Of a stretch of DNA of 64,000 nucleotides, positions 7,099-63,925 are shown piece by piece. Origin of the DNA: an uncultured bacterium. GTDB taxonomy: Bacteria > Lernaellota > Lernaellaia > JACKCT01. The stretch is from contig CAZQAE010000016.1 in NCBI GenBank assembly GCA_964591275.1, forward strand, positions 287 to 64,286. Reading direction: 5' to 3'. The notes under the pieces were generated by a model. The model made no database searches. It had not been told where the DNA came from and saw only the letters and a program-made list of their open reading frames with translations. Position 1 is the first letter of the stretch. Every line of letters begins with the position of its first letter. The translations under genes were made by a program, and so were the position numbers.

Positions 7099-7986
7099 AT
7101 GGATGGCAAAACCCTCATCGTAAAATCCCCCGCGAAGGTCAATTTGCGCCTGGAGATCGTGGGGCGCCGGGCTGACGGATACCATTTACTTCGGATGATC
7201 AATTGCGACCTTGAGCTTTGCGATGAATTGGAGCTTGGCGAGCGCTCATCAGGGATCACGATGGAATGCGATCACCCGGATTTGCCCACGGATTCATCCA
7301 ACCTGGTTTGGCGAGCCGCCGAGGTTCTGGCGAAGGCGACGGGCTGCGGGAAGGGCGTTGCGATCAGCTTAAAAAAGTTGATCCCGATTGCCGCCGGACT
7401 GGGCGGCGGGTCGAGCAACGCAGCCGCAGTTTTGCGTAGTCTGAATGCACTTTGGAAACTGGATTTGTCTGAAAACAAGCTCATGAAAATCGGCCTGAGC
7501 ATAGGCGCCGATGTCCCATATTTTCTTCACGGCGGGCCCGCATTGGTCGAGGGGATCGGGGAGATATTAAGCCCATTTTCATTGGAAACCGAAGCGGAAA
7601 TTGTCTTGATCAATCCCGGATTTCCGGTGTCGACCAAAGCGGTCTACGAGGCCCATGATTGGACCTTGACACGAAAGTCAATGCACACTATGTTTCCCCG
7701 GTTGATCTGTACCCTAGATGATTTTTCAAGGGTATTATTGAACGATCTGGAGCCGATCGTTTCCGAAAAGCATTCTGAAATCAGTGGGATGAAATCCATG
7801 CTGCATGAGCATGGGGCGCTCGGGTCTTTGATGAGCGGCAGTGGACCGACGGTCTTTGGCATCTTTCAAGACGCCGACGCCATTGATGGCGTTATGAGTG
7901 ACTGCGCTTTGCGCGGTTGGCGAGCCATTCGGACTCGGCTTGTCACGGATACAAAGAAAAAAATTCAGGTCGCCCATGAAGATTGA
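7099..7986 (+). CDS. ispE: 4-diphosphocytidyl-2-C-methyl-D-erythritol kinase
   Basis: KSPAKVNLRLEIVGRRADGYH N-terminus and the GHMP kinase motif PIAAGLGGGSSNAAA. Confidence 0.9.
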   Translation: MDGKTLIVKSPAKVNLRLEIVGRRADGYHLLRMINCDLELCDELELGERSSGITMECDHPDLPTDSSNLVWRAAEVLAKATGCGKGVAISLKKLIPIAAGLGGGSSNAAAVLRSLNALWKLDLSENKLMKIGLSIGADVPYFLHGGPALVEGIGEILSPFSLETEAEIVLINPGFPVSTKAVYEAHDWTLTRKSMHTMFPRLICTLDDFSRVLLNDLEPIVSEKHSEISGMKSMLHEHGALGSLMSGSGPTVFGIFQDADAIDGVMSDCALRGWRAIRTRLVTDTKKKIQVAHED

Positions 7987-23864: not shown

Positions 23865-23956
23865 ACCCGCTCACTCATCGCCTGTTGGCGATTTTGTCGT
23901 TCGCGGCTCTGTTTCGCTGCCTGACGGCGATTTTGTCGTTCGCGGCTCGGTTTCGT
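23865..23956. repeat. 52-bp dispersed repeat (1.6 tandem copies)
   Basis: CCCGCTCACTCATCGCCT...GGCGATTTTGTCGTTCGCGGCTCTGTTTCG at 23865-23916. The 30-nt core repeats at 23927-23956. A near-identical copy lies at 63874-63925. Confidence 0.85.
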
Positions 23957-26885: not shown

Positions 26886-27652
26886 TGAGCGGGCAAAAGA
26901 AGATCGAAATCCGTGTGCAGGGTTTGAAAAAACAATTCGGCGATCTCGCAGTACTGAAAGGCGTGGATTTTTCGGTCAACGAGCATGAGGTCGTGGCGCT
27001 GATCGGCCCGTCGGGATCGGGGAAAAGCACCTTGCTGCGCTGTCTTAATCTGCTGGAATTTCCCGATGCCGGGAAAATATTCGTCAAAGACGCGCCTGTG
27101 GAATATCAAACCATGACGCCGACTCAGCTTACGCAGCACCGCACGCGCATGGGCATGGTATTTCAGCATTTCCATCTCTTCCCTCATCGCAACGCGCTGC
27201 AAAACGTCATTGAAGGTCCCGTGCATGTACGCGGCCTGAAGGAATCAGAAGCCACCGAAAAGGGAAAAGCGCTGCTCAATCAGGTCGGCTTGCAGGACAA
27301 GTACGAGGCCTGGCCGTCGCAACTGTCCGGCGGGCAGAAACAGCGTGTGGCCATCGCGCGCGCCCTGGCTATGAATCCGGAGGTTCTTCTCCTCGACGAG
27401 ATCACCAGCGCTCTGGATGTGGAGATGATTTCCGGCATCAATGATCTGCTCACCGACCTTGCCATGAAGGGGATGACCATGGTCATCGTCACGCACGACC
27501 TGGGTTTTGCACGGCGCGCGGCAGGCAAAATCTGCTTTCTCGACGACGGGGAAATCATCGAATCCGGCGCCCCGGAAGATTTGCTGGACCATCCAAAAGA
27601 AAAGCGCGTCAAGGAGTTTCTGCGCGCCGTGCAAAGCACACCTCTAGCGTAG
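26885..27652 (+). CDS. Amino-acid ABC transporter ATP-binding protein
   Basis: Walker A GPSGSGKST, signature LSGGQKQR, Walker B LLLDE. Its ATG overlaps the permease stop (ATGA). Confidence 0.9.
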   Translation: MSGQKKIEIRVQGLKKQFGDLAVLKGVDFSVNEHEVVALIGPSGSGKSTLLRCLNLLEFPDAGKIFVKDAPVEYQTMTPTQLTQHRTRMGMVFQHFHLFPHRNALQNVIEGPVHVRGLKESEATEKGKALLNQVGLQDKYEAWPSQLSGGQKQRVAIARALAMNPEVLLLDEITSALDVEMISGINDLLTDLAMKGMTMVIVTHDLGFARRAAGKICFLDDGEIIESGAPEDLLDHPKEKRVKEFLRAVQSTPLA

Positions 27653-45904: not shown

Positions 45905-46657
45905 CTAAAGGAATTTCACAATGCGCGCGAAGGATTCCGCCTTGAGCGCCGCGCCGCCGACGAGGGCGCCGTCGATATCCGGGCAGGCCATCAGATCGTC
46001 CACATTGTCGGGCTTGACCGAACCGCCATACTGAATGCGTATGGCCTGCGCGAGGTCCGCGCTATAAATATCTCCAAGGACTTTGCGGATGAATGCGTGG
46101 ATTTCCTGCGCCTGATCCGGTGTCGCCACCTTGCCGGTTCCGATGGCCCAAACCGGTTCGTAAGCCAGGACGATCTTTTCAAGATCCTCGGCGCTAAGAC
46201 CCAGCAGGCCTTCGCGCAGTTGCGTTTCAATCAAGGCCGTCGCGCCATGCGCTTCGCGGACGTCCAGCTTTTCTCCGACGCAATATATCGGCGTAATATC
46301 GGCCAAAAGCAGCGACTTGATTTTTCCGTTGCACGATTCACTTGTCTCGCTGTGAAATTGTCGTCTTTCCGAATGGCCGACCAGGCAATACTTTGCGCCG
46401 ACGCTTTTGATCATCGACGCCGAGACATCGCCGGTGAAAGCTCCAATATCTTCAGCCCGACATTCCTGCGCACCGACATCGATGGCGCTTCCCTTCACGA
46501 TCCTCGCCACGGATTCGATAAATGGATAGGGGGGAATGAGAACAATATCGCGGTCTTTAATGTCCCCAACAGCTTCAACGAGCAGCCTGGCCAGGGTTCC
46601 CGCGGAATCCAGATCCGTGTACATTTTCCAATTGCCGGCCAGAATATATCGACGCAT
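45905..46657 (-). CDS. tpiA: Triosephosphate isomerase
   Basis: AGNWKM, GHSERR, AYEPVWAIGTG, QYGGSV motifs. Confidence 0.95.
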   Translation of the reverse strand: MRRYILAGNWKMYTDLDSAGTLARLLVEAVGDIKDRDIVLIPPYPFIESVARIVKGSAIDVGAQECRAEDIGAFTGDVSASMIKSVGAKYCLVGHSERRQFHSETSESCNGKIKSLLLADITPIYCVGEKLDVREAHGATALIETQLREGLLGLSAEDLEKIVLAYEPVWAIGTGKVATPDQAQEIHAFIRKVLGDIYSADLAQAIRIQYGGSVKPDNVDDLMACPDIDGALVGGAALKAESFARIVKFL

Positions 46658-46669
46658 GATATTTCCCTT

Positions 46670-47893
46670 CTAAATTGGTTCTTCTTCTTTTTCTTTTTCT
46701 TCTTCCACTACATCAAGGGCGGCGAGTCCCGGCAGGACTTTGCCCTCCAAAAGCTCAAGCGAAGCTCCTCCGCCGGTGGAGATATGCGATATCTTGTCAG
46801 CCACGCCGACGGCTTTGACGGCGGCCACCGAATCGCCGCCTCCCACCACGCTTAAAGCATCGGTCTCGGCAATGGCGCGGGCGATCGCGAAGGTACCGGC
46901 GGCGAACTCCTCGATTTCAAATACTCCCATCGGTCCATTCCAGATGATGGTCTTTGCCTCGTTAATAACTTTTGCGAAGGCCTCCCGCGTTTTCGGGCCA
47001 ATATCGAGACCAATTTCATCGCTTTCGAAGCCGTCCGACGGAACGATGCGGCTTGGCGCTCCGGCTTCCATTTTCGTCGCCGCAATGTGGTCAACCGGAA
47101 GGTGAATTTTGACCCCTTTGTTTTCAGCCGAGCGGAGGATGTCCTTGGCCAAATGAAGCTTGCTCGGCTCCACTTTGCTGAGGCCGACATTCTCTCCCCT
47201 TGCCCTCAGGAAGGTGTATGCCATGGCGCCGCCAACGAGGATTGCATCGACCCGTTCGATCAGGTTTTTGATGACGCCGACCTTGTCGGACACCTTGACC
47301 CCGCCTAGAATCGCCAGGACCGGACGGGCGGGATTATCCATGGCCAGTTTAAAATATTGAATTTCCTTTCTCATCAGAAATCCGGCGCATTTTTCCCTGA
47401 CCAGGCGCGGCAGCGCGTCGATGGAGGCATGGGCTCTGTGCGAAGAACCAAAGGCGTCGTTGACATAAACATCGGTGAAATCAGCGAAAGCCTGCGCCAG
47501 GTCGGGATCATTCTTTTTCTCGCCGGGGTGGAATCGAAGGTTTTCCAGCACCATGATCTCCGCGTCTTTGATCTGATTGGCCCAAATTTTCACACCATCG
47601 GAAATGACTTCCGGCGCCTGCACGACCTCGCGGCGCAACACTTCAGCCAGGCGGCTCGCTACGGGCTCCATGATATAGCGGGGATCACGGGTTCCTTCTT
47701 TCGGACGCCCGAGATGGCTGGCGACAATCAAACGGGCTTCGTTGCGCAGGGCGTAACGAATTGTGGGCACGACGGCCAGAATCCGCGTGTCGTCAGTGAT
47801 CTCGCCCTTTTCGTTCATGGGAACATTCAGGTCGGCGCGCAGAAAAACTCGCTTGCCGCTCAGGTCGACCTCATCAATAAATTTGATGGTCAT
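46670..47893 (-). CDS. pgk: Phosphoglycerate kinase
   Basis: RADLNVP, SHLGRP, NGPMGVFE, STGGGASLE motifs, plus a short acidic C-terminal tail EEEKEKEEEPI. Confidence 0.95.
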   Translation of the reverse strand: MTIKFIDEVDLSGKRVFLRADLNVPMNEKGEITDDTRILAVVPTIRYALRNEARLIVASHLGRPKEGTRDPRYIMEPVASRLAEVLRREVVQAPEVISDGVKIWANQIKDAEIMVLENLRFHPGEKKNDPDLAQAFADFTDVYVNDAFGSSHRAHASIDALPRLVREKCAGFLMRKEIQYFKLAMDNPARPVLAILGGVKVSDKVGVIKNLIERVDAILVGGAMAYTFLRARGENVGLSKVEPSKLHLAKDILRSAENKGVKIHLPVDHIAATKMEAGAPSRIVPSDGFESDEIGLDIGPKTREAFAKVINEAKTIIWNGPMGVFEIEEFAAGTFAIARAIAETDALSVVGGGDSVAAVKAVGVADKISHISTGGGASLELLEGKVLPGLAALDVVEEEKEKEEEPI

Positions 47894-48005
47894 TGCGCAC
47901 CCTTCTTAATGTGTATTGCTTCACACGAATACTTTGGATCAATAAATCCTTCGATGCCCGCGTTTTTAAGGCCTTTAGCGTATAGCTTTCAATTATTGCG
48001 ACAAA

Positions 48006-49055
48006 CTATAGCTTGCCGCCCACCATCGCCGCCAAATCCACGAGACGGCAGGAATAGCCCCACTCATTATCATACCAGGAGAGCACTTTCAGCATTTTTT
48101 TGCCACTCATGCGTGTGAAACCCGGATCGAAGATTGAACTGTGCGAGTTGCCGGTAAAATCAACGCTGACCAAAGGCGCAACTTCATAGCCCAGAATGCC
48201 CTTCATCGGACCATCAGAAGCTGTTTTCATCGCCGCGTTGACCTCTTCCACCGTGGCGGCTTTTCCCAGATCAACCGTCAGGTCCACCAGGCTGACATTG
48301 GGCGTCGGCACGCGCACCGCCATGCCTCCGAGCTTGCCGTTGAGTTTGGGCAAAACAAGACCAATGGCCGTCGCGGCGCCGGTTTTCGTGGGAATCATCG
48401 AAACGGCGGCGGCGCGAGAACGACGCAGGTCCGGGTGGGGAGCGTCCAAAAGGCACTGGTCGGAGGTATAGGAGTGGATGGTCGTCATCAGGCCGTTTTT
48501 TATCTGAAAATTGTCATCAATGACTTTGGCGATTGGGGCCAGGCAATTCGTGGTGCAACTGGCGTTGCTGACAATATGATGGGATTTGGGATTATACACC
48601 TGGTCGTTGACGCCGAGCACGATCGTCGCGTCCACCTTTTCTTTTGCATAGGCGAACAATTTTCTTTCCTCGGCGTTGCTGGTTTTGGCCGGGGCGCTGA
48701 GAATGACCTTTTTGGCGCCGGCGCTCAGATGCATGGAAGCCTTCGCCGGAGACAAAAAGAGGCCCGTGGAATCGATAACGATATCGACTTTGAGCTTTTC
48801 CCACGGTATTTCAGCCGGATTGCGCTCGGCGAAGACCTTGATCTTGCTGGTTCCGGCCACCAGAGTGTTGCCGTCCATCCTTACGTCTTTTGGAAATGTC
48901 CCCATAACCGAATCGTATTTGAACAGGTGAGCCAGCGTGGCCGGGTCCGTAATATCGTTGATCGCGACAACTTTGATCTTTTTCGTTTCCAGCGCCCGAT
49001 GCAAAACACTGCGACCGATTCGCCCGAATCCATTGATGCCAACGCGAATTGCCAT
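48006..49055 (-). CDS. gap: Glyceraldehyde-3-phosphate dehydrogenase (type I)
   Basis: INGFGRIGR and SNASCTTNCLAP active site, WYDNEWGYS. Confidence 0.95.
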   Translation of the reverse strand: MAIRVGINGFGRIGRSVLHRALETKKIKVVAINDITDPATLAHLFKYDSVMGTFPKDVRMDGNTLVAGTSKIKVFAERNPAEIPWEKLKVDIVIDSTGLFLSPAKASMHLSAGAKKVILSAPAKTSNAEERKLFAYAKEKVDATIVLGVNDQVYNPKSHHIVSNASCTTNCLAPIAKVIDDNFQIKNGLMTTIHSYTSDQCLLDAPHPDLRRSRAAAVSMIPTKTGAATAIGLVLPKLNGKLGGMAVRVPTPNVSLVDLTVDLGKAATVEEVNAAMKTASDGPMKGILGYEVAPLVSVDFTGNSHSSIFDPGFTRMSGKKMLKVLSWYDNEWGYSCRLVDLAAMVGGKL

Positions 49056-49406
49056 GATTTAACCCCTTTATAGTGTGCTTTAGACAAAGGCCTGGCGGGA
49101 AATATCGAATGCGCCATTTTCCTTGAAAACAATGCGTATTATGAAAAACCCGCAGGTCAAAAAAAGCTTGCGGCCCACGTATTGATTATCACAAAGCGCA
49201 TGGCCGTTCAAGTAAAAATCAGGAATGATGTAAGCGCTGCTAACAAACAGTACCCATCCATACAACCTGGGGTTGTCATGGCCGATTTCCACCCCTCCCA
49301 AGGTGCGCCTTTTAAAAATTCATCTTTTTCTTGAATCATTTCAGCATTGACACTAGCATTGATGCGCTAAGGCCAATGGATTCCTTGATTTCAAATGAGG
49401 GCTAAT

Positions 49407-50423
49407 ATGAAACTCGAAGAAACCTTCATGCATTTCCTGTTGGAACACCAGGAACGAAATAAAAGATCGCTCAACTTTCTGATCCTCATGGAAAACATCG
49501 TCGCGGCGGCCAAGTACGTGCAGCACTATTATAGGACTGCGGCGCTGCACGGGAACCTGGACCAACTCGACCAGATCAATGTGCAGGGCGAAGTGCAGAT
49601 GCGCCTGGACCTCATGGCTCACGAGATCATGATGCACTATCTGGGCGAGTCCAAGCAGGTGATTGAGGCGGTGAGCGAGGAGGTCACCGAAGAGATTACG
49701 CTCAACGAAAACGGTCGTTACTTCGTATATTTCGATCCGCTGGACGGCTCCAGCAACGTACGCCACAGCCTGCCGGTCGGCATCCTGTTCGGAATCGCCA
49801 AGAGAAATTTCGACGGACCGGAGGATTATCACCTTCGCCGCGGTTGCGAGTTCATCGCTGCGGGCATGTTTCTGATTCCGACGGGTGTTTTTACTTTCGC
49901 CCTCAAGGATGCCGGCGCATGGCGCTTCATTCAGGATCAGTCGAGCATCTATATCAGGCCCACCAAAGTGATGATTCCAAACAATCCTAAAAACTTCGAG
50001 CTTTCCTGGAATTCAGCGAATCGCAAGACCTATTCGAAAAAAGTGCAGAAATGGATTCTCGGCAGCGAGGATGCCTTCAAGTTTCGCTACGCCGGTTCGT
50101 TGGCCATTGACTTTCACAGGCTTCTCGATAACGGGGGCATGTTCATGTATCCGGCCATCGTCAATCATCCCGTCGCCGGCAAGAACCGCCCGCAGGGCAA
50201 ATTGCGCCTCATGTACGAATGCGCCGTAACGGCTCTTATTGCACGGGAAGCCGGCGGAGTCGCCATTGATGAACAGGGGAAAGACATTCTTGGCATCCAA
50301 CCGATCAACAGGCATCAGCGCAGCGCGCTCTACATCGGAAGCAAGGCGATCGTGGAGAATATCCGCGAAACCCTGATAGATAAACCGGCAAAGGAAAAGG
50401 CGAAAAAAAAGGTTGAAGGCTAA
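49407..50423 (+). CDS. fbp: Fructose-1,6-bisphosphatase class 1
   Basis: FDPLDGSSN metal site and GKLRLMYECA motif. Divergent from gap. Confidence 0.85.
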   Translation: MKLEETFMHFLLEHQERNKRSLNFLILMENIVAAAKYVQHYYRTAALHGNLDQLDQINVQGEVQMRLDLMAHEIMMHYLGESKQVIEAVSEEVTEEITLNENGRYFVYFDPLDGSSNVRHSLPVGILFGIAKRNFDGPEDYHLRRGCEFIAAGMFLIPTGVFTFALKDAGAWRFIQDQSSIYIRPTKVMIPNNPKNFELSWNSANRKTYSKKVQKWILGSEDAFKFRYAGSLAIDFHRLLDNGGMFMYPAIVNHPVAGKNRPQGKLRLMYECAVTALIAREAGGVAIDEQGKDILGIQPINRHQRSALYIGSKAIVENIRETLIDKPAKEKAKKKVEG

Positions 50424-50528: not shown

Positions 50529-50666
50529 TGAATTACTCGTTTCCACGGCGCTTACGCACCGTGCTACAATCTTTCGCCTCTGGCGAGGCTTTCCCTTATT
50601 TTCCGGCCCCACATTGAGGCGTCGGTTTATTGCCCGAGGCGAAAGCGCGATGCCGATAACGTATCC

Positions 50667-50701
50667 CTCATACTTCATACTTCATACTTCATAACTCACC
50701 C
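50667..50701. repeat. Heptamer array (C/T)TCATAC x4-5
   Basis: CTCATAC TTCATAC TTCATAC TTCATAA CTCACCC ends 3 nt before the stop codon of the minus-strand gene 50705-51013. Confidence 0.85.
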
Positions 50702-50704
50702 GAC

Positions 50705-51013
50705 TCATCCCCACCAGGTCGGGGCGAGTTCTTCATCTTCGCAGTAGGCGTTTTCAGCCACGTATTCCGAAGCCACGCTATCAGGATCGTTCACGGCCTC
50801 TTCGGCCATATCACTGCAATCGGAGGAACTTTCGGCGCTGTCAGAGTCAAAAACCGCGCCATCGTCGCCGGCCCAGTAGCAGCATCCCGGATCGCCGCTT
50901 TGCGCGTCATCGCTGTCGTCGTCGTCATCATCGTCATCGCCGCCGCACGACACGGCAACCATACCGCACGCAATAATTATCAGAATGGAAAATATCATAT
51001 ACGTGGTTTTCAT
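50705..51013 (-). CDS. Small acidic Cys-containing lipoprotein with poly-Asp linker
   Basis: Signal peptide with lipobox VSC, GGDDDDDDDDSDD linker, six further Cys. GGAGG RBS upstream. Confidence 0.6.
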   Translation of the reverse strand: MKTTYMIFSILIIIACGMVAVSCGGDDDDDDDDSDDAQSGDPGCCYWAGDDGAVFDSDSAESSSDCSDMAEEAVNDPDSVASEYVAENAYCEDEELAPTWWG

Positions 51014-51070
51014 AATCGGCCTCCTTGATTGGTCGTCAAACGATGATTATGGAATTTTGATCCGATGGCA

Positions 51071-51345
51071 AGATGCGGGCCCGTGAGGGCGCAACAATAT
51101 TTGCCCCTAAGTTACGGGGTTTTCCCCGTAGTTAAGATGCAAGCCCGAAGGGCGAAACAATATTAGCCGGTCGGCGTAAGCCGCCGGTATAGGTGTGATT
51201 TGTTATTCCCATTTGAGCCCGAAGGGCGGCACATGGAATCGAGATTGTGTCGCCCTAAAGGGCTCGAATAAATTAGGGAAAAACGATGTGTACCGGCAGC
51301 TTACGCTGGCCGGCTAATATTGTAACGCCCTTACGGGCTATGAGG
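51071..51345. repeat. Nested palindromic element built of small GC hairpins (REP/MITE-like)
   Basis: Arms 51135-51189 and 51291-51345 are inverted copies. Inner inverted pair at 51215-51233 / 51246-51265. Extra direct module at 51071-51101. Hairpins are GCCC-GTGA-GGGC, CGGC-GTAA-GCCG and TACGGGG-TTTT-CCCCGTA. Confidence 0.8.
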
Positions 51346-51368
51346 CGCCCTGCGTGAATTACTGTCCT

Positions 51369-51402
51369 CATTCCGCATTCCGCATTCGCAATTCCGAATT
51401 CA
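51369..51402. repeat. CATTCCG-type short tandem repeat
   Basis: CATTCCG CATTCCG CATTCG CAATTCCG AATTC ends 8 nt before the stop codon (51411-51413) of the CHAT gene. Confidence 0.8.
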
Positions 51403-51410
51403 CCCTAACC

Positions 51411-54400
51411 CTATTCCCCGGTTTGCACATCACCGGATTCATCGGCTTCTGCTTTCGCTTTCGCGTATTGCTCCATCATCTCACTTAAATTTTCCGCCTG
51501 CTCTTTGCCGACTTCCTTTTCGACAACTTCGCCAAATCTGCTTTCGCCCAGGGCTTCCTTTTGCCTTAAAAGCCAATGAAGATCGATCCTGGCTTGCGGA
51601 ACGCCGATTTCAATGCGAATGGCCAGGCTTTTCAGATTATAGGGTATCGCCTTTTCGACATTCCCATGCTCAGTAAAATGAATACCGATTTGGCTGAAAG
51701 TGGAAGCTGTCCCGCCACGGTTGCCAATTTCCTCTTTGATTTTCAGGGACTTCTTATACCACTCCAGCGCCTCGTCGTAGCTGCCGCGATCCTCCGCGAC
51801 CATCCCCAGTTGGTGGTAGGAGGAGGCCATCCCGCCACGGTTTCCTAATTCCTCTTCAATCGCCAGGGACTTCTTGTACCACTCCAGCGCCTCGTCGTAG
51901 CTGCCGCGATCCTCTGCGACCGTTCCCAGGTTGTGGTAGGTCTTAGCCATGCCACTGCGGTTCCCCAATTCCTCGTCCAGCGCCAAGGACTTCTTGTACC
52001 ACACCAGCGCTTCATCATAGCTGCCGCGATCAAAAGATAAATGTCCCAACTGCCCATAAGAGTTGGCCATTCCACTGCGGTTCCCTAATTCCTCTGCAAT
52101 CGCCAGGGATTTCTTGTACCACTCCAGCGCCTCGTCGTAGCTGCCGCGCATCTGCGCGACAATTCCCAAGTGGTGGTATGATTTGGCCATTCCACTACGG
52201 TCCCCTAATTCCTCGAAAATCGCCAGGGATTTTTTGTACCAGTCCAGCGCCTCGTCGTAGATACCACGTAGATAGGATAAATTCCCTAGTTGCCCATAGG
52301 AATTGGCCATCCCACTGCGGTTCCCCAATTCCTCTTTGATTGCCAGGGACTTCTTGTACCAATCCAGCGCCTCGTCGTAGCTGCCGCGCTCCTGCGCGAC
52401 CGTCCCCAGTTGGTGGTAGGATCTAGCCATTCCGGCGCGGTTTCCTAATTCTTCTTTGATTTCCAGGGACTTTTTGTACCAATCCAGCGCCTCGTCATAT
52501 TTGTCGCTCTGAAAGGATAAATTTCCAAGCTCTCCATACGAGTTGGCCACCCCAGCAAAGTTCCCCAATTCCTCTTTGATTTTCAAGGACTTCTTGTACC
52601 AATCCAGCGCTTCGTCATAGCTGCCGCGATTCTGCGCGATGATCCCTAACTGATGCAGATATTCTGCCTTTTCTTTAGGAAGCTGCTCAAGCCACGACAA
52701 GGTTTCCAAGCAAAGTGATTCTTCTCTTTGCCATGCGCCGCTAGTATCCAAGTGTTTGCAGACGGCGCCAGTAATGGCGAGCGCCGTGTCGGTATCTCCC
52801 CCGGAATGGAGGTGATATCGGGCTTCCATGTATTCTTCCAAATCGTGGCTAAGAACTCTTGCACGCCAGTGCCAATAGCGGCCGGCGCGAAGGTGTGCGG
52901 CTTTGAGATTATCTACAGAAATTTTTGTTTGCAGAGCCTCCGCCGTCCAGCGATGGACGATGTAACTTGGTTCATCGGAAGCGGTGTATTGAACCGGCGA
53001 CAGGAGAGTTAAATTAAGCAGGTGTTCTACGCTGGCATCAAATCCATCCGGCGTTGTTAGGGGCGGTTTCATCAGATCATGGATTTCGGGATGCAATTTT
53101 ATTATTTCTTCAACGCTTAGGCCCAGGTCTGCTTCTTCTTTGTTTTTCGCCGCCTCAATCTGCTTCATAATTTTAGTGAGCTTCTTTTCCCGTTTTTCCT
53201 TTTCGGGTCCTTCTATTTCTCGCCCGACCTGCCAGTCAAGGCCACCTGCATCCACGGGCAGGCGATAGACCGATGCGCCCAGCAAAAGTTCCCGAGCCGG
53301 AGGAACTTCATCGACCCTTTCCAAAAGCTTTTGCAGCAGTACATCGTCGGTCGCCAGCGTAATCGTTTCGGCCAGGGCAGCGTCGAAATTGCCTTTTTTG
53401 TCCGCGCACCATTTGCCGGGATCGTCGATGCCTTTTTTCTCCAACGCTTCGTCCATTTTATCCTGCACATCATTAAAGCGCGCTTTGCCGCCGCGCAGCA
53501 GGGCGTCCAGATATTCCAGCGCTCGCGGATGCCCGCCCACCTTTTCGTAAGCTGTGCGTTTGTCGGCGAAAGGCAGCCCGTCTATGCCCGGTAGGCGCAT
53601 GATGAGCTTGCGCATCTCCGCTATGGATAGGGGGCCCAGATGCAGGTGATCAAGGCGGTTATGCGCCCGCTTGGGCAGATCGAAAGGATAGCGACAAGTG
53701 ATCATCAGTCGGCTTAAGCCTGGGTTGCGCGCCCACATGGAAAGTAGCTCGGCCAGCGATTCATCTTTAACTTTGTGTTTTTTGTCGAGGTTGTCCTCAA
53801 AATTGTCCAGCAGCAGTGCCATGGGAACTTGGGGCAGGACGTTTTCCTGTAAGATTTTGAAACGATCCTGCCACTTGTATTGCTGCGTTTTCAGCAAAAC
53901 AGCTACCTGGCGAAGGGGATGTTTTTCATCAAAGCCATTAACCATGCAGATGGAAAACAAGCGCTCGCCGACAGCTTCAATCACAACCGCCGCGCCCTTG
54001 ATTTCACTGGCCAGGGAAACCACAATCCACTGTTTTTCCACCAGCCGGAAAAGGGCCTTCGTGGCCAGCGTGCTTTTTCCCACGCCGCCTATGCCGTGGA
54101 TCAAAACGCCGGCGTTGTCATTATCCCCCAGCGCCCGCCCGATCCTACGCAGTTCCGTGCGGCGACCCACGAACTCGCCCACGCCCCGCGTGACGACGCC
54201 GTCCACGTACTGCGCTTTAGCAGGCGGATCGATTTTCTCAATTTCGCCATTTGGATTGAATAAAGGCCTGGAAAGTCCCCGGAGGTACAGCGAAGGAGTC
54301 GCCCATTCCGCGAGCGCGCCTATGGCCTTTTTAGCCGACTTTTTCGCGTATTCCTGGTCGATTTCTTGTCTCGTTTTCGAAAAAGCCGCCAGAGGATCGC

Positions 54401-55418
54401 TTTGCTCCATCACCGTGAGCTTACGAAAGAAAACGCCTGCAAATTCTGTGGCGTAGGGGTCCGACACAGAGGCCTGCATGGCGGCTACTGCCGGCGCGCC
54501 GTGCTTAAGAAGTTCGCGGGCCACGGCGGGCAGGACCGTTTCTTCCACTTTACCCTCAAGGGCGGTGGAGCATCCGGCCAGCACAATAAGGGGTACGCCC
54601 CGGTCGGTCGGGATCGCCTCTTTGCAAAAGCGCTCGGCGTCCACCAGATCCGCCCTGCCTTCATCATCTTCCAGGAGCAGGTATCCGGGCGCGCCGTGGC
54701 TGGTGATGTAGAGGACATGGTAGCGTCGGGCTTCAAGAGCTTCGCGGATGTCCTTGACCGTACCGTTTTCCAGGATGTGCACGTAGGCGTCGCCCTTTTG
54801 GCGCGCTTCATCCACGGCATTGAGGATTGTCGATAACTCTCTTTCATAATCCAGCAGCTCGCCCCGCTCGTTGTTTTCCTCCGGGCTGCCCACGGCGACC
54901 AGTATGCGCAGCGGGCGGGGAATTTCCTGGGCGGAAACGGGATCGAGGCCGCCGACAATGCGGTGCAGATATATATTGGGATGCAGGACCAAAGGAGTTC
55001 CGACCATGTCCTTTGCTTCCGGCAGGCGCAGCGTTTCCCACGGCAGATCGTTCAAGTCGTCGTCGACGATTTCCAGCGCAAGGCGGCAGGATACGCCCTG
55101 GCTATCCGCCAGTTTGACCGTTTCATTTAATGCCTCGCCCGCCTCGCCGATGAGAAAACATTGCGTCAATTCCTGGCCGAGGCGGTATAGGATGGAAGAT
55201 TCTGTGGCGGGCGGGGAATTTTTCGCATCGCGAGAAGTCTCTCGCTCTTGTGAGGCTAACTGCGCTCTTTGACCTCGCGCCCTTTCCAGGTCGTAAAGGC
55301 GCATCTCCAGTTCATGGCTCATTCCTTTTGGCTTGTGGCTCGCGCTTTTGTTATCCGCTGTAAATTCGACCTTTTTTAAGCCGATACGAAGGGTGCATTG
55401 GATCGATCCTTCGGCCAT
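51411..55418 (-). CDS. CHAT (caspase-like) protease, STAND/NB-ARC-like P-loop NTPase and TPR repeat protein
   Basis: CHAT dyad candidates are H241 in YITSHGAPG and C283 in VLAGCSTA. Walker A is GIGGVGKST (nt 54069-54095) and Walker B-like is LLLDNFED. Eight near-identical 40-aa TPR units (YDEAL.WYKKSL.I.EELGN) plus one degenerate unit. Confidence 0.8.
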   Translation of the reverse strand: MAEGSIQCTLRIGLKKVEFTADNKSASHKPKGMSHELEMRLYDLERARGQRAQLASQERETSRDAKNSPPATESSILYRLGQELTQCFLIGEAGEALNETVKLADSQGVSCRLALEIVDDDLNDLPWETLRLPEAKDMVGTPLVLHPNIYLHRIVGGLDPVSAQEIPRPLRILVAVGSPEENNERGELLDYERELSTILNAVDEARQKGDAYVHILENGTVKDIREALEARRYHVLYITSHGAPGYLLLEDDEGRADLVDAERFCKEAIPTDRGVPLIVLAGCSTALEGKVEETVLPAVARELLKHGAPAVAAMQASVSDPYATEFAGVFFRKLTVMEQSDPLAAFSKTRQEIDQEYAKKSAKKAIGALAEWATPSLYLRGLSRPLFNPNGEIEKIDPPAKAQYVDGVVTRGVGEFVGRRTELRRIGRALGDNDNAGVLIHGIGGVGKSTLATKALFRLVEKQWIVVSLASEIKGAAVVIEAVGERLFSICMVNGFDEKHPLRQVAVLLKTQQYKWQDRFKILQENVLPQVPMALLLDNFEDNLDKKHKVKDESLAELLSMWARNPGLSRLMITCRYPFDLPKRAHNRLDHLHLGPLSIAEMRKLIMRLPGIDGLPFADKRTAYEKVGGHPRALEYLDALLRGGKARFNDVQDKMDEALEKKGIDDPGKWCADKKGNFDAALAETITLATDDVLLQKLLERVDEVPPARELLLGASVYRLPVDAGGLDWQVGREIEGPEKEKREKKLTKIMKQIEAAKNKEEADLGLSVEEIIKLHPEIHDLMKPPLTTPDGFDASVEHLLNLTLLSPVQYTASDEPSYIVHRWTAEALQTKISVDNLKAAHLRAGRYWHWRARVLSHDLEEYMEARYHLHSGGDTDTALAITGAVCKHLDTSGAWQREESLCLETLSWLEQLPKEKAEYLHQLGIIAQNRGSYDEALDWYKKSLKIKEELGNFAGVANSYGELGNLSFQSDKYDEALDWYKKSLEIKEELGNRAGMARSYHQLGTVAQERGSYDEALDWYKKSLAIKEELGNRSGMANSYGQLGNLSYLRGIYDEALDWYKKSLAIFEELGDRSGMAKSYHHLGIVAQMRGSYDEALEWYKKSLAIAEELGNRSGMANSYGQLGHLSFDRGSYDEALVWYKKSLALDEELGNRSGMAKTYHNLGTVAEDRGSYDEALEWYKKSLAIEEELGNRGGMASSYHQLGMVAEDRGSYDEALEWYKKSLKIKEEIGNRGGTASTFSQIGIHFTEHGNVEKAIPYNLKSLAIRIEIGVPQARIDLHWLLRQKEALGESRFGEVVEKEVGKEQAENLSEMMEQYAKAKAEADESGDVQTGE

Positions 55419-55513
55419 AATATTTTCCTGCCTTGCAATTTATTTTTTCTACATCCCCTACACTACTGGCCCATCGCCGTGGCCGTCAACCGATTGCCCC
55501 GCGCAAGGTGTGC

Positions 55514-55860
55514 GTCACAAAAGTGGGTTTGATAAAAATCCCTTGAAAAACACCGAGGAATTTATAGTACATCATTGCAAAGTCTTTTGCCCGGCAGGGC
55601 AAAGCAGCAATAGCCCACAGCGTAAGCTGTGGGAAAACGGAATATCTTAAGACAAATATAGCCCATGAAATGGGCGAAGGAATTGTTTTAAGACTCGTTA
55701 TTGTGTGTCACCCATTTCATGGGCTAAAATTATTTTGCGGCCCCTAATTCCCACAGCTTGCGCTGTGGGCTATTTCTGCATCGCCTGTTTCACAAGCTGA
55801 TAATTGAGGTTAGTATTTGGTTTGAGAATTTGACGAAAATGAAAAACCCACTTCTGTGAC
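55514..55860. repeat. 347-bp three-layer nested palindrome (MITE/REP-like)
   Basis: Outer arms are GTCACAAAAGTGGGTTT (55514-55530) / AAACCCACTTCTGTGAC (55844-55860). Middle arms are AATAGCCCACAGCGTAAGCTGTGGG (55609-55633) / CCCACAGCTTGCGCTGTGGGCTATT (55750-55774). Inner arms are GCCCATGAAATGGGC (55661-55675) / CACCCATTTCATGGGC (55709-55724). Confidence 0.8.
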
Positions 55861-56013
55861 ATATACCCCCCGCGCGCGCAGCCCGGCCTTGTCTGTTTGC
55901 CTTTGGTGGTATATGCATTTTCAGTTATTGCGCTATGGTAAAAAACTATAGCGAATAAGCCCTGGCGTTATTTGTTATTTTTAAAAGTTGTTTTTTGTTA
56001 GAAAAAGGATTTC

Positions 56014-57309
56014 ATGGGAAACGAAGACAGCATAGCGGTCGGCAGCGTCGCCGCCTCGGACGAGCCGTGGAGGCGACGTCCGGAGCTCGACTACCTGCGC
56101 GGCCTTTTCATGATCGCCATGGTGATCTACCACAATTTTCGCATCATCTGGTCGCCGGATGATTATCCGCAACTCATCTCCATCGGCATTTTGGAATTGG
56201 CCACGGGCATCTATCTGGCCGTCTCCGGCGCCAACGTCATCAATTTTCTCGCCAAAGCCCGCGCCAAGCCCAACTTCGACGCCATGCGCTTTTACGTCAA
56301 AGCCTCCTTCTGGCTTTTTGTCATGGGTTTTTCCTACAATCTGATCGTCGGAACGCCGGGAGTGATGGACCTCATTCAGTGCGTGGCCATCGGGACTTTC
56401 GTGAGTTTTCTGCTGCTTTACGCGCGCGTGAGAAACAGCTTGGTCGGCCTTATAACGCTCGCCTTTTTTGCGACCGGCGCCTTGGTCCACAGCTCGACGA
56501 TTGAGATTTTCCCCGCGGTTCAAAGTTCATTTTTCTACAACCAACTCATCGGCAACGGCGTCGTGCTCAGTCAATGGATCAAGGGGGTGCATCCATTCCC
56601 GTACATGTTCAATCACTACGGCCCGATCCCCTGGATCGGCTATTTCACGCTGGGCGTATTCCTGGACCGCCTTCGCGGCAAATGGATGTGGGCGGCGCTG
56701 GCGGGGTCATTTCTCATCGCGGCGCTGGGTGCATATCTCCCTTATCTGGAAGCTGATGGAAACATTATGCAGGCCTACAGGGTCAATCCGCGTTTCATGC
56801 TCCAATCCGTGGGAATGATCTCCGCGCTTTATCTTTTGGCCAAGCTTTTTTACCGGGGAAAAACGACCTGCAATCAAAAGGTCGCTTTCTGGTCGCATAC
56901 CTCGCTCATCGTTTTCGTTTTTCACTGGTTTTTCATCATCGCCGCCGGATTCATCGTCCAAATGATCGCCCAGGTCACGGATTGGCCTCTTTTTCACGAC
57001 TGGTTCCGCTATCCCAGGGCGCTTATCGCGTTTACAGGCATTGCGCTGGCTCTTAGGCCGCTGGAAAATCTGCGCCTTCGCTGGTCGAAGTCGCCTCACT
57101 TTGAATCCCGTGGCCGCAAGATTATGATCGCCGGTTTTGTTCTGGCCATTTTATCTCTTCCCTTTTCTCTGTCGGCAAAGGGCGCGCCGTGCGTGGCGAT
57201 TTTTGTCGGGGTGATCGGCTATATCGGGTGCATGATGTCGGCTTACTCCTTTGCTTTTCTATACGGATTTCTGCGCGCCAAGTGGAGTAAGGAGGCGACC
57301 CGCTCATGA
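56014..57309 (+). CDS. DUF1624 / acyltransferase-like polytopic membrane protein
   Basis: RRRPELDYLRGLFMIAMVIYH N-terminal motif and more than 10 TM segments. Confidence 0.45.
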   Translation: MGNEDSIAVGSVAASDEPWRRRPELDYLRGLFMIAMVIYHNFRIIWSPDDYPQLISIGILELATGIYLAVSGANVINFLAKARAKPNFDAMRFYVKASFWLFVMGFSYNLIVGTPGVMDLIQCVAIGTFVSFLLLYARVRNSLVGLITLAFFATGALVHSSTIEIFPAVQSSFFYNQLIGNGVVLSQWIKGVHPFPYMFNHYGPIPWIGYFTLGVFLDRLRGKWMWAALAGSFLIAALGAYLPYLEADGNIMQAYRVNPRFMLQSVGMISALYLLAKLFYRGKTTCNQKVAFWSHTSLIVFVFHWFFIIAAGFIVQMIAQVTDWPLFHDWFRYPRALIAFTGIALALRPLENLRLRWSKSPHFESRGRKIMIAGFVLAILSLPFSLSAKGAPCVAIFVGVIGYIGCMMSAYSFAFLYGFLRAKWSKEATRS

Positions 57310-58940
57310 AAAGGGCGCTCAAATGGTTCGCCGCCTCAACGCTGGCGGGTATGATCTATTCGGTTTTTTTATGGGGCTTCGGAGTCTACGACGACGCCTA
57401 CATCACCTTCCGCTACGCCCGCAACGTGGCCGCCGGCCTGGGTCCCGTTTACAACGCCGGGGAGCGGGTGGAGGGCTGTACGACCTTTTTGCAAATGATG
57501 ATTCTGGCGCCCTTCATTCGCCTTGGCGCTGATCCGCGATTCGTGTCCGTGGCCCTGTCGATTCTGGCCCTGGCCCTGATTGTCGCGATGGGCGTCTGGC
57601 TGCTGGGCCGGATTTACGACGGCGAAAAGTTGCGCCTCGCCTCCTTTGCTTATGGCTTTTTCATCATGACGAATCCCGGAATGATCCTCTGGACAATCTC
57701 GGGAATGGAAACGATTTTGTACAGCGTCGCGCTGGCCGCCGTTGCGCTTTCTTTGTGGCGCGATCTCGAAAAAGACAAAGCGCCCGTTGCGGCGGCGCTG
57801 GCGTGCGTGGTCGCGGCGCTGATCCGGCCCGACGGCGTGGTGATCGCAGGATTTTTAACACTGGCGATTTTCTGGAAAACTAAAAACCAGCGATGGAAAA
57901 ACGCGCTCATCTTCTCGCTGATTTTCGGGATCCTGTATGGTGTTTATTTTGCCTGGCGTTTTCATTATTACGGCTGGTTTTATCCCAATACCTATTACGC
58001 CAAAGTGGGCGGATTCAAGCCGATTATTGTGATCCGCGGGATGGAGTACTGGATCAAATCCATATTCAGCGGCGCTATGCCTTTGATTCCTCTTCTCATG
58101 CTTGTTTTTCGCAAAAAACTTGGACTGAAGCTGGGCCTCCTGGAAATAATTTTGGTCGCCGTCATCGCCGCGCAGTCTTTCCAATCGATCATGTCCGGCG
58201 GAGACTTCATGCCCTTCTATCGCTTCATGATTCCGGTGTGGCCGCTTCTGGCGCTGCTGGCGCTGAGCCTGACGCAGCGGATCGCGTGGGGCGATTCCAA
58301 AGGTTTTTTTGGCAGACTCGCCGGAAGAATGCACAGGCGGCGCGGCATCGCCATCGCCGTGCTCATTATCAACGCATCGACGATCTTCATGGGATTGAGC
58401 AGCGTGAAAGCTTTCACCGGCGCCGTGGCTTGCCGGGCCTGGGAAAAGAATGCGCGAATATTAAGTGCGATCGTTCCGCCGGATTCTCTGATCGCCGCCA
58501 CGGCCATCGGCGCCTTCGGTTGGTACATTGATGGACCGCTTATTGATTTGCTCGGACTCACCGACGAAACCATCGCGCATACGAAAACGCGCACCAGATT
58601 AAAATCGCCTAGGGGTCATGAAAGATACAATACGAAATACGTTTTGAAACGCAGGCCGGATTTCATATTGTTTTGCGTTCAGACCGCGAAAACACCTTTT
58701 AAGGAGTGCGGGGAAATCGGCAAGGTCCTGCCGGTTCCGGCCTATCGGGACATGGTGAAAAACGCCCAGTTTCTTTCCCTTTATCGCTACGCAAACCACA
58801 AAATCGACGGGGGCTACATCGCGACTTTCATCCGCCGCTCCAGACTCGGGAAGCCGGGTTTCGAGGGGTGGTTCGTCACTGCCGATGCGCCGAAGACGCC
58901 AACCGACGCGCAGTGGTTGGATAAGAAAAAGAAGAAGTGA
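57306..58940 (+). CDS. GT-C-fold membrane glycosyltransferase-like protein
   Basis: YDDAYITFRYARNVAAGLGPVYNAGERVEGCTTFL N-terminal motif, many TM segments, soluble C-terminal domain. Its start overlaps the previous stop by 4 nt. Confidence 0.4.
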   Translation: MKRALKWFAASTLAGMIYSVFLWGFGVYDDAYITFRYARNVAAGLGPVYNAGERVEGCTTFLQMMILAPFIRLGADPRFVSVALSILALALIVAMGVWLLGRIYDGEKLRLASFAYGFFIMTNPGMILWTISGMETILYSVALAAVALSLWRDLEKDKAPVAAALACVVAALIRPDGVVIAGFLTLAIFWKTKNQRWKNALIFSLIFGILYGVYFAWRFHYYGWFYPNTYYAKVGGFKPIIVIRGMEYWIKSIFSGAMPLIPLLMLVFRKKLGLKLGLLEIILVAVIAAQSFQSIMSGGDFMPFYRFMIPVWPLLALLALSLTQRIAWGDSKGFFGRLAGRMHRRRGIAIAVLIINASTIFMGLSSVKAFTGAVACRAWEKNARILSAIVPPDSLIAATAIGAFGWYIDGPLIDLLGLTDETIAHTKTRTRLKSPRGHERYNTKYVLKRRPDFILFCVQTAKTPFKECGEIGKVLPVPAYRDMVKNAQFLSLYRYANHKIDGGYIATFIRRSRLGKPGFEGWFVTADAPKTPTDAQWLDKKKKK

Positions 58941-63873: not shown

Positions 63874-63925
63874 TGCCCGCTCACTCATCGCCTAGCGGCG
63901 ATTTTGTCGTTCGCGGCTCTGTTTC
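63874..63925. repeat. 52-bp dispersed repeat (second locus)
   Basis: Near-identical to 23865-23916, located 43 nt after the GH31 stop codon. Confidence 0.85.

Follow-up and report, generated by a model that had tools for sequence, protein, structure and literature searches.

A TIR-less CHAT-STAND-TPR gene from an uncultured Lernaellota bacterium as a candidate stand-alone NLR-type receptor-effector

Bacterial NLR-like proteins of the "all-in-one" type have been noted to carry CHAT or TIR at the N terminus (10.1101/2020.01.06.895854; PMC8195603; PMC7159879), an architecture discussed in comparative genomics work of 2020–2021 that itself cites Koonin and Aravind 2002. A survey of STAND proteins lists 589 clades, 198 of them defense-associated (PMC13581612). 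In KrAvs12, a caspase-like protease is fused to Avs; a phage protein is the trigger and the catalytic Cys is required, and an effector-less caspase-like protease defends Escherichia coli (PMC12642450). The SAVED-CHAT protease forms filaments upon activation by cA3, so that activation goes together with oligomerization (10.1101/2023.06.23.546230), and the caspase of type IV Thoeris degrades proteins indiscriminately after arginine (10.1101/2024.10.24.620036). Here, we describe a gene found in a 64,000-nt stretch of contig CAZQAE010000016.1 (assembly GCA_964591275.1) from an uncultured Lernaellota bacterium; this whole stretch is referred to below as the window, and all coordinates are positions in it unless another locus is named. 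We put a probability of about 0.65 on the reading that its product is an intact, stand-alone STAND receptor-effector of the NLR type, in which a CHAT protease is joined to an Apaf-1/CED-4–like switch and a TPR array.

The gene occupies positions 51411 to 55418 of the minus strand, on which all the protein features listed below also lie. It is a complete open reading frame (ORF) of 1335 codons plus a stop, encoding, in order, a linker, a CHAT domain, a STAND nucleoside triphosphatase (NTPase), and TPRs. A frame of this length cannot have arisen by chance. It begins with ATG, preceded ~9 nt upstream by an AGGA Shine-Dalgarno–like motif. Since an in-frame TAA is located at 55440 to 55442, 8 codons 5′ of the start, the frame does not extend further in the 5′ direction. 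Of 243 positions at which conservation within the family is 90% or higher, the protein keeps 226 (93%), a mid-range value for the family, and is therefore not visibly decaying. The gene has a GC content of 0.544 (0.622 at third codon positions, GC3), and its relative synonymous codon usage distance of 0.074 is among the lowest of 22 genes. Composition and codon usage are thus host-like, so any acquisition of the gene was not recent. Scans for promoters and terminators around the gene gave counts at chance level. An exact-sequence look-up returned no identical full-length protein on record, and a search of cluster representatives returned a 624–amino acid (aa) fragment (P0198) identical to part of it. 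NCBIfam gave nothing above cut-off for the protein.

The protease domain is strongly matched by Pfam. The CHAT profile (PF12770) covers residues 105 to 353 (54360 to 55106) with E = 2.1e-22 and a score of 80.4 bits, where 24 would suffice, and it matches 31 of 31 family members. The putative catalytic residues are His241 in ITSHGAPG (codon at 54696 to 54698), conserved in at least 90% of members, and Cys283 in LAGCSTA (54570 to 54572), which is invariant; conservation of individual residues, here and below, was judged in alignments of 30 to 45 homologs. The solved structure closest to the domain by sequence is the SAVED-CHAT protease 8tl0, in which H241 and C283 align with chain positions 355 and 402, i.e., H375 and C422 in the numbering of the paper, the spacing being 47 residues in either numbering of SAVED-CHAT. 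In SAVED-CHAT, the double mutation of H375 and C422 abolishes activity (10.1101/2023.06.23.546230). We also modeled residues 1 to 400 with AlphaFold2, using 45 homologs [predicted local distance difference test (pLDDT) of 87; predicted template modeling score (pTM) of 0.90]. When the model was compared to the PDB with Foldseek, SAVED-CHAT 8tl0 was again the best match (E = 3e-10), and other matches included Csx29, the TPR-CHAT protein of Craspase (TMq up to 0.55), separase, the anti-sigma CHAT protein DdvA, and caspases-3, -7, and -8. Judged from this model, the domain is predicted to have the caspase-hemoglobinase fold. Since the dyad is conserved and aligned with that of SAVED-CHAT and the model matches as well, the protease looks catalytically competent. 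A CHAT cell-division protease of the HetF type was considered and rejected: the NCBIfam model NF045509 scores 25.7 bits against a cut-off of 1200.

Residues ~405 to 830 (52929 to 54206) form the predicted STAND module, composed of nucleotide-binding, helical, and winged-helix parts, the last with a helical insert, as delineated by the AlphaFold2 model, Foldseek, and Pfam AAA_16. Pfam is of limited help here: AAA_16 reaches 33.4 bits, barely over its cut-off of 32.6, at residues 415 to 469, and ATPase_2 matches in full length (residues 416 to 637) below its own cut-off. The motifs are clearer. The P-loop (Walker A) IHGIGGVGKST (54069 to 54101) has invariant G444, G445, G447, and K448. In the Walker B motif ALLLDNFEDN (53790 to 53819), D538 is invariant, and conservation of N539, E541, and D542 is 90% or higher. 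A sensor-1 or RNBS-B–like motif, RLMITCRYPF (53682 to 53711), contains invariant T574 and R576; we take it to correspond to the "TTR" motif of NB-ARC proteins. Five residues of the GxP ("GLPL"-like) motif KVGGHPRALEY (53511 to 53543), namely G628, G629, H630, P631, and R632, are invariant, as is H822 in the MHD-like motif YIVHRWTA (52941 to 52964). By analogy with Apaf-1 and plant NLRs, H822 may be the ADP-contacting histidine; the accessory motifs were named by pattern and order rather than from a solved structure.

An AlphaFold2 model of residues 395 to 905 (pLDDT of 88) yielded Apaf-1 as the best Foldseek match (E = 3.6e-9), followed by CED-4 (1e-7), MalT, and the NB-ARC parts of NRC1/2/3 and Sr35 from plants, all with a probability of 1.00; TM-scores are just 0.3 to 0.4, owing to domain arrangement. 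ORC/Cdc6 proteins also rank among the matches. We therefore file the module, on the strength of its modeled structure and motifs, as a presumptive member of the STAND class that is AP-ATPase–like. A STAND transcription factor of the MalT/AfsR type was rejected, as Pfam finds no DNA-binding domain in the protein.

The C-terminal third is a TPR array at residues 920 to 1279 (51582 to 52661), in which eight near-identical 40-residue units (residues 920 to 1239) are followed by one degenerate capping repeat. The preliminary description of this DNA, made from the sequence alone, had proposed a long TPR array, and Pfam bears this out at residues ~905 to 1280 (TPR_12, E = 1.5e-69; TPR_10, E = 1e-55). 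The eight units are 60 to 88% identical as protein and up to 86% identical as DNA, where Tandem Repeats Finder detects a 120-nt period with 74 to 80% matches. Variation is focused at repeat positions 3, 4, 7 to 11, 29, and 40, and there is little elsewhere, most of the remaining positions being almost fixed. Among curated TPR models, the nearest belong to AP-ATPase–TPR proteins linked to ribosomally synthesized and post-translationally modified peptides (RiPPs) or other peptides (HaaT and the FxSxx-COOH system), and all score under cut-off (PMC7159879). The C-terminal tail (residues 1280 to 1335; 51414 to 51581) carries the family-conserved motif IDLHWLLRQKEALG, with the consensus IDLxWLxRQRExLG.

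The same description had already recognized the CHAT domain and the NTPase. Both assignments hold up, the former by PF12770 and the aligned dyad, the latter weakly by Pfam and clearly by motifs and by structural similarity to Apaf-1, CED-4, and plant NB-ARC proteins, as the Foldseek comparison that it had proposed now indicates. The positions that it gave for the frame and for H241, C283, and K448 (in GIGGVGKST) are exact. It had left the N-terminal ~100 residues unassigned, and on this point it needs revision. Residues 1 to 104 (55107 to 55418), which lie outside the Pfam CHAT match, form a family-specific module that is modeled as a small β sheet (residues 6 to 28) and three helices, mostly with pLDDT >80. 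They align with residues ~155 to 260 of TIR-bearing homologs, i.e., with a conserved segment that follows an N-terminal TIR domain of ~150 residues in 104 of the 120 best homologs. From this alignment, the first ~100 residues are identified as the conserved TIR-CHAT linker of the family.

The TIR domain itself, detected by Pfam in 22 of 31 family members, is missing: a tblastn search with three TIR domains found no TIR remnant near the gene and no TIR anywhere in the 64-kb window. Given this result and the stop codon 8 codons upstream of the start, the gene is, at the sequence level, a TIR-less variant of the TIR-CHAT-STAND-TPR family. It is not alone in this, since homologs P0053, P0079, and P0101 start at the same linker junction and likewise have no TIR. 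Other homologs have a trypsin-like or a helix-turn-helix (HTH) domain in place of TIR or no N-terminal extension at all. Such swapping of N-terminal effectors (TIR, trypsin-like, HTH, or none) is typical of conflict systems.

The family is large. In a search of 5.8 billion proteins, 726 relatives were found at E ≤ 1e-10 among the candidates scored, with identity to the window protein of up to about 51%. When 1.84 billion cluster representatives were searched exhaustively with residues 1 to 905, 559 of them matched at E ≤ 1e-30 and 4252 did so at E ≤ 1e-10. The best homologs are collinear with the protein from the linker to the tail (95 to 100% query coverage, 43 to 52% identity). Where members have a named source, it is Streptomyces (with several paralogs per species, as judged from source names), another actinomycete, Skermanella, Polyangiaceae, or Thermoanaerobaculia. 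Plasmid and phage collections are essentially devoid of the family; they yielded 28%-identical relatives on cyanobacterial megaplasmids and one weak match on a phage contig.

Five homolog loci, too few for statistics on enrichment beside defense genes, were inspected for their gene content. One member (P0001) directly follows a ribbon-helix-helix (RHH)/PemK toxin-antitoxin pair, another (P0002) is located beside IS21 and a second protein with TIR_2 and DUF7779, a third has a transposase and a group II intron nearby, and two loci are unremarkable. In the third case (P0097), TIR is encoded by a separate 80-aa ORF that overlaps the start of the CHAT gene, and an rve transposase and a group II intron reverse transcriptase lie alongside. 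These contexts (L004 5762-9573, L009, and L008) would fit a TIR module that turns over and some association with mobile or defense genes. Since the five loci have no neighbor in common with the window or with each other, the view that the gene is a single-gene system without a dedicated partner is supported by comparison of these sequences, in line with the lack of operon partners proposed earlier. In the window, too, no plausible small partner ORF of the EACC1 or Pepco type was found in the flanks, and there is no EACC1, Pepco, or MBL-type partner gene.

The neighbors of the gene fall into two blocks. On the downstream side (45905 to 50423) lies a compact central-carbon cluster, tpi-pgk-gap on the minus strand with a divergent fbp on the plus strand. 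The cluster is also found, with 77 to 88% protein identity, in metagenome-assembled genome (MAG) contig CAXXWT010000005.1, where an additional 533-aa ORF separates gap from fbp. The host phosphoglycerate kinase (PGK) is 88% identical to that of a MAG and 58 to 66% identical to the best named matches ("Deltaproteobacteria" MAG, Candidatus Lernaellota). Between fbp and the CHAT gene, a small acidic ORF of 102 aa (50705 to 51013, minus strand) encodes a hydrophobic signal- or lipoprotein-like N terminus followed by a poly-Asp, Cys-rich region, with no Pfam match; just 3′ of it, at 50668 to 50693, there is a perfect heptamer tandem repeat (TCATACT, 3.7 copies). On the upstream side, a divergent 431-aa membrane protein (56014 to 57309, plus strand) is DUF1624/HGSNAT-like. 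Pfam does not give the DUF1624 label used in the preliminary description on the window protein itself, and the label finds backing in three of its homologs, which carry PF07786. The gene overlaps one for a 544-aa GT22-like protein, forming a conserved pair (56014 to 58940, plus strand) that is probably an operon for modification of cell-envelope glycans; the 4-nt overlap recurs in L010 and L011. Beyond the GT22-like gene, mscS and DUF481 follow.

Presence and absence of the gene were compared in two usable relatives, each sharing one flank only. In a MAG with a fructose-1,6-bisphosphatase (FBPase) 87 to 88% identical to that of the host (L001), tpi-pgk-gap-fbp is kept together with a 122-aa counterpart of the small acidic ORF beside fbp, and there is no CHAT gene within 10 kb. 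The small ORF is therefore part of the fbp block and does not belong to the CHAT gene. In the second relative (L010), whose DUF1624-like protein is 74% identical, a TonB-dependent receptor gene occupies the position of the CHAT gene. A clean empty site could not be demonstrated in either locus, because synteny breaks exactly at the gene. Since the two relatives share either flank and have no CHAT gene there, the placement of the gene at the junction of two synteny blocks, as an accessory gene that is not fixed in a conserved housekeeping neighborhood, is supported.

Both intergenic regions around the gene contain long palindromes, as had been noticed before. The 3′ one (element A, 51139 to 51341) has 42-nt arms, each with an Acido-Lenti-1–like hairpin, and a fold energy of −113.8 kcal/mol (z = −13.1 compared to shuffled sequences). 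On the 5′ side, a nested palindrome has outer arms at 55500 to 55530 and 55844 to 55874 and an inner hairpin at 55649 to 55736, and includes element B (55586 to 55797; z = −11.9 compared to shuffles). The flanking palindromes make up three of the four long inverted repeats in the window; the fourth (27491 to 27650) has 29-nt arms that are 79% complementary and 102 nt apart, and is located at the end of an ORF region. The hairpin in the palindrome arms, CCnnnnGCTTACGCnnnnGGCTAAT (ATT), matches Rfam Acido-Lenti-1 below threshold (26.7, 23.5, and 20.0 bits against a gathering score of 37). No Rfam family reaches threshold on the palindromes, and microRNA-type matches merely reflect long hairpins.

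We built a covariance model of the hairpin from five window copies. It matches only six sites in the window, i.e., these five and a weaker one, all of them within 50544 to 55797, around the CHAT gene: 50544-50591(+), 51076-51118(−), 51139-51187(−), 51293-51341(+), 55586-55633(−), and 55750-55797(+). A further copy is present in an intergenic region of L010, at 7170-7216(−). The copies form inverted pairs within the long palindromic elements, and their stems differ in sequence with pairing kept, which suggests that the Acido-Lenti-1–like motif behaves here as a dispersed repeat and not as a stand-alone small RNA gene. A metagenome scan also revealed a palindrome ~70% identical to element A over 200 nt, located 3′ of an alkaline phosphatase–like gene (L013 1258-1460). 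A search for direct repeats or a target-site duplication across the gene returned only a chance-level 16-mer, and no integrase or transposase was found among the neighbors. Because direct repeats, transposase, and integrase are all lacking, the palindromes are best read as dispersed elements resembling repetitive extragenic palindromic (REP) sequences that accumulate in a variable spot rather than as the ends of a mobile cassette.

Two independent public assemblies, L011 (100% identity to the window) and L012 (99.85%), break within element B (their starts correspond to window positions 55745 and 55642, respectively) and are thus uninformative on the CHAT gene. Therefore, the palindromes fragment short-read assemblies of this organism, and such breaks may be the reason why the full CHAT protein is off record while the 624-aa P0198 is on it. 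A second interspersed repeat, CCCGCTCACTCATCGCCT..GGCGATTTTGTCGTTCGCGGCTCTGTTTCG, unrelated to the palindromes, is found at 23866 to 23955, where it forms a tandem duplicate, and at 63876 to 63924, with 94% identity between the sites; L011 ends exactly at the latter copy.

What the protein might do can be outlined from the way in which Apaf-1, the NLRs of plants, and the Avs proteins of bacteria work (PMC13581612). At rest, it would be a nucleotide-locked monomer. The TPR solenoid would be the docking site of a ligand, either a protein or a peptide, for which a phage component is the most plausible candidate; docking would free the molecule from autoinhibition and thus allow nucleotide exchange and oligomerization of the NTPase module. 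The oligomers would gather CHAT domains, leading to their activation by proximity, and the active protease would cut cellular (or phage) proteins, so that the infected cell would stop growing or die. By this analogy, a role in defense or cell death may be proposed for the protein.

Several observations weigh against such a receptor-effector. Pfam NB-ARC (PF00931) and NACHT do not match the protein, and they are present in the precomputed domain lists of only a few homologs. A profile built from the NTPase sequence gives weak matches to STAND structures in the PDB (PH0952, 3.5e-5; ZAR1, 0.005; Apaf-1, 0.05), and generic P-loop matches dominate; given these two results, any assignment to a sub-clade within STAND is provisional. 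TIR, the usual second effector of the family, is missing, and the regular, near-identical TPRs are unlike the irregular, target-shaped sensors of characterized Avs proteins (PMC13581612). The gene is surrounded by housekeeping genes, not by a defense island. The PADLOC check proposed earlier assigned no known defense system to the protein, the matches being limited to a generic TPR model, SAVED_CHAT (E = 1e-3), and PDC-S73 (E = 4e-3). Last, we found no experimental study of the TIR-CHAT-STAND-TPR family in the literature.

Some of these points can also be read as signs of a protease with a non-immune role in signaling or cell fate, in which the same NLR-like machine would respond to an endogenous signal (a stress or peptide signal, or one that tells kin from non-kin) and, through regulated proteolysis, serve development, dormancy, or allorecognition instead of defense against phages. 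The housekeeping surroundings and the lack of a PADLOC system would fit, and the near-identical TPR_10/12-type repeats, with their few variable positions, resemble the repeats of NLRs from fungi and filamentous bacteria that are linked to allorecognition (PMC10907252; 10.1101/2020.01.06.895854). The nearest curated TPR models, all below cut-off, are RiPP- or peptide-linked (PMC7159879), and CHAT proteases outside defense do exist, HetF being a weak match at 25.7 bits. Yet that score is far under the cut-off of 1200 bits, and no peptide-processing genes were found among the neighbors. Moreover, effector swapping, a patchy and paralog-rich distribution, and toxin-antitoxin or IS neighbors at some loci are hallmarks of conflict systems, and we consider the non-immune role unlikely. 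Decay of the gene is a different matter: loss of TIR could have inactivated a former TIR-CHAT-STAND-TPR gene, leaving it non-functional or on the way to a pseudogene. TIR, present in 104 of 120 homologs, is indeed gone, the upstream intergenic region is full of nested palindromic repeats, and the "TIR-less" P0097 has a split-off TIR fragment by a transposase and a group II intron. However, the 1335-codon frame is unbroken and preceded by a Shine-Dalgarno–like motif, all catalytic and nucleotide-binding residues are kept, 93% of family-conserved positions are retained (mid-range), and codon usage is host-like. With P0053, P0079, and P0101 beginning at the same junction and no TIR remnant detectable, decay is distinctly improbable.

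The intergenic repeats could also be taken as the ends of a unit, either composite or resembling a miniature inverted-repeat transposable element, that brought the gene as its cargo. All six hairpin copies of the window are in intergenic regions around the gene, three of its four long inverted repeats flank it, and the gene sits at a synteny break. But elements A and B do not match as a terminal pair, each being a complete palindrome of its own, and they are accompanied by no flanking direct repeat, target-site duplication, transposase, or integrase. GC, GC3, and codon usage are those of the host, and the family is essentially absent from plasmids and phages. Copies elsewhere, 3′ of an unrelated gene in L013 and in an intergenic region of L010, are typical of dispersed REP elements, and we give the cargo scenario very little credence. 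The earlier suggestion of an "accessory, possibly mobile" gene is thus retained in its first half: no CHAT gene accompanies fbp in L001 or the DUF1624-like gene in L010, with one flank compared in each and no clean empty site shown, whereas mobility finds no backing in an integrase or a duplication, the codon usage is host-like, and the repeats are of the dispersed REP-like type.

Proteins that combine a caspase-like protease with STAND and a repeat sensor are bacterial counterparts of apoptosome and NLR machines, and few such proteins have been tested experimentally; in the reading that we prefer, the gene encodes one of them. A more speculative and rather doubtful extension is that the family constitutes a one-polypeptide TIR-to-caspase immune cascade built on an apoptosome-like switch, a single NLR bearing both TIR and CHAT as effectors, with the window gene as a natural TIR-deletion variant, a minimal apoptosome with a built-in caspase. 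If so, CHAT would be fired by STAND oligomerization alone, without a TIR-made nucleotide signal or a dedicated substrate gene, and the near-identical TPRs with few variable surface positions would make a rapidly re-programmable receptor, whose ligands might be short peptides and not phage proteins in their folded state. Since forms with and without TIR occur naturally, they would offer a comparison between effectors that are independent and effectors that act in series, like the TIR and caspase of type IV Thoeris.

Among known systems, Avs proteins, KrAvs12 in particular, resemble the window protein in having an N-terminal effector, a STAND NTPase, and a C-terminal α-repeat sensor in one chain (PMC12642450, PMC13581612). 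The effector of KrAvs12 is caspase-like, as here; this likeness is one of described architecture. No Avs hidden Markov model for AVAST types 1 to 5 (PADLOC-DB 2.0) matches the protein, and the solenoid sensors differ, being irregular and target-shaped in Avs and regular in the window protein. Apaf-1 and CED-4 are the best structural matches of the NTPase, which has the P-loop, Walker B, sensor-1, GxP, and MHD-like motifs, and in machines of this type a protease is coupled to an oligomerizing switch, as proposed here. In Apaf-1–type machines, however, the protease is recruited via CARD and the sensor is a WD40 propeller, whereas the window protein has its protease fused directly and a TPR sensor. 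The best structural matches of the protease domain, SAVED-CHAT (8tl0) and Csx29, the TPR-CHAT of Craspase (7y84, 8d9f), are under cA3 or RNA-guided control and have dedicated substrates (PCaspase, Csx30). In the window protein, control would instead fall to the STAND-TPR module to which the protease is fused, and the locus has neither CRISPR nor a neighboring substrate gene.

Type IV Thoeris has TIR and caspase-like activities, which the parent TIR-CHAT family combines, and with its promiscuous proteolysis it sets a precedent for an effector-less protease. It consists of two genes, uses an N7-cADPR signal, and has no STAND or TPR, and the window has no TIR gene by tblastn with three TIR domains. 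NLRs of fungi and filamentous bacteria with TPR_10/12 repeats have the same "all-in-one" effector-NOD-TPR layout (10.1101/2020.01.06.895854; PMC4986451). Their TPRs are described as highly conserved; the window repeats are up to 88% identical, with few variable positions. They differ in that the window host is not known as filamentous or multicellular, and in that the window protein has no amyloid signaling motif and no Bell-domain partner. The closest relatives remain the TIR-CHAT-STAND-TPR proteins (e.g., P0001, P0003, and P0008, the last from Skermanella aerolata), with which the window protein is collinear over its whole length at 38 to 52% identity; many of them, from Streptomyces, Polyangiaceae, and Thermoanaerobaculia, go by the name of "tetratricopeptide repeat proteins." They have in common the linker, the CHAT dyad, the NTPase motifs, the 40-aa TPRs, and the C-terminal tail, and the window protein differs by the lack of the ~150-aa TIR. 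It is thus a new, divergent, TIR-less member of an already recognized family rather than a new category, and what the gene adds is a divergent representative, together with its assignment to the large TIR-CHAT-STAND-TPR family.

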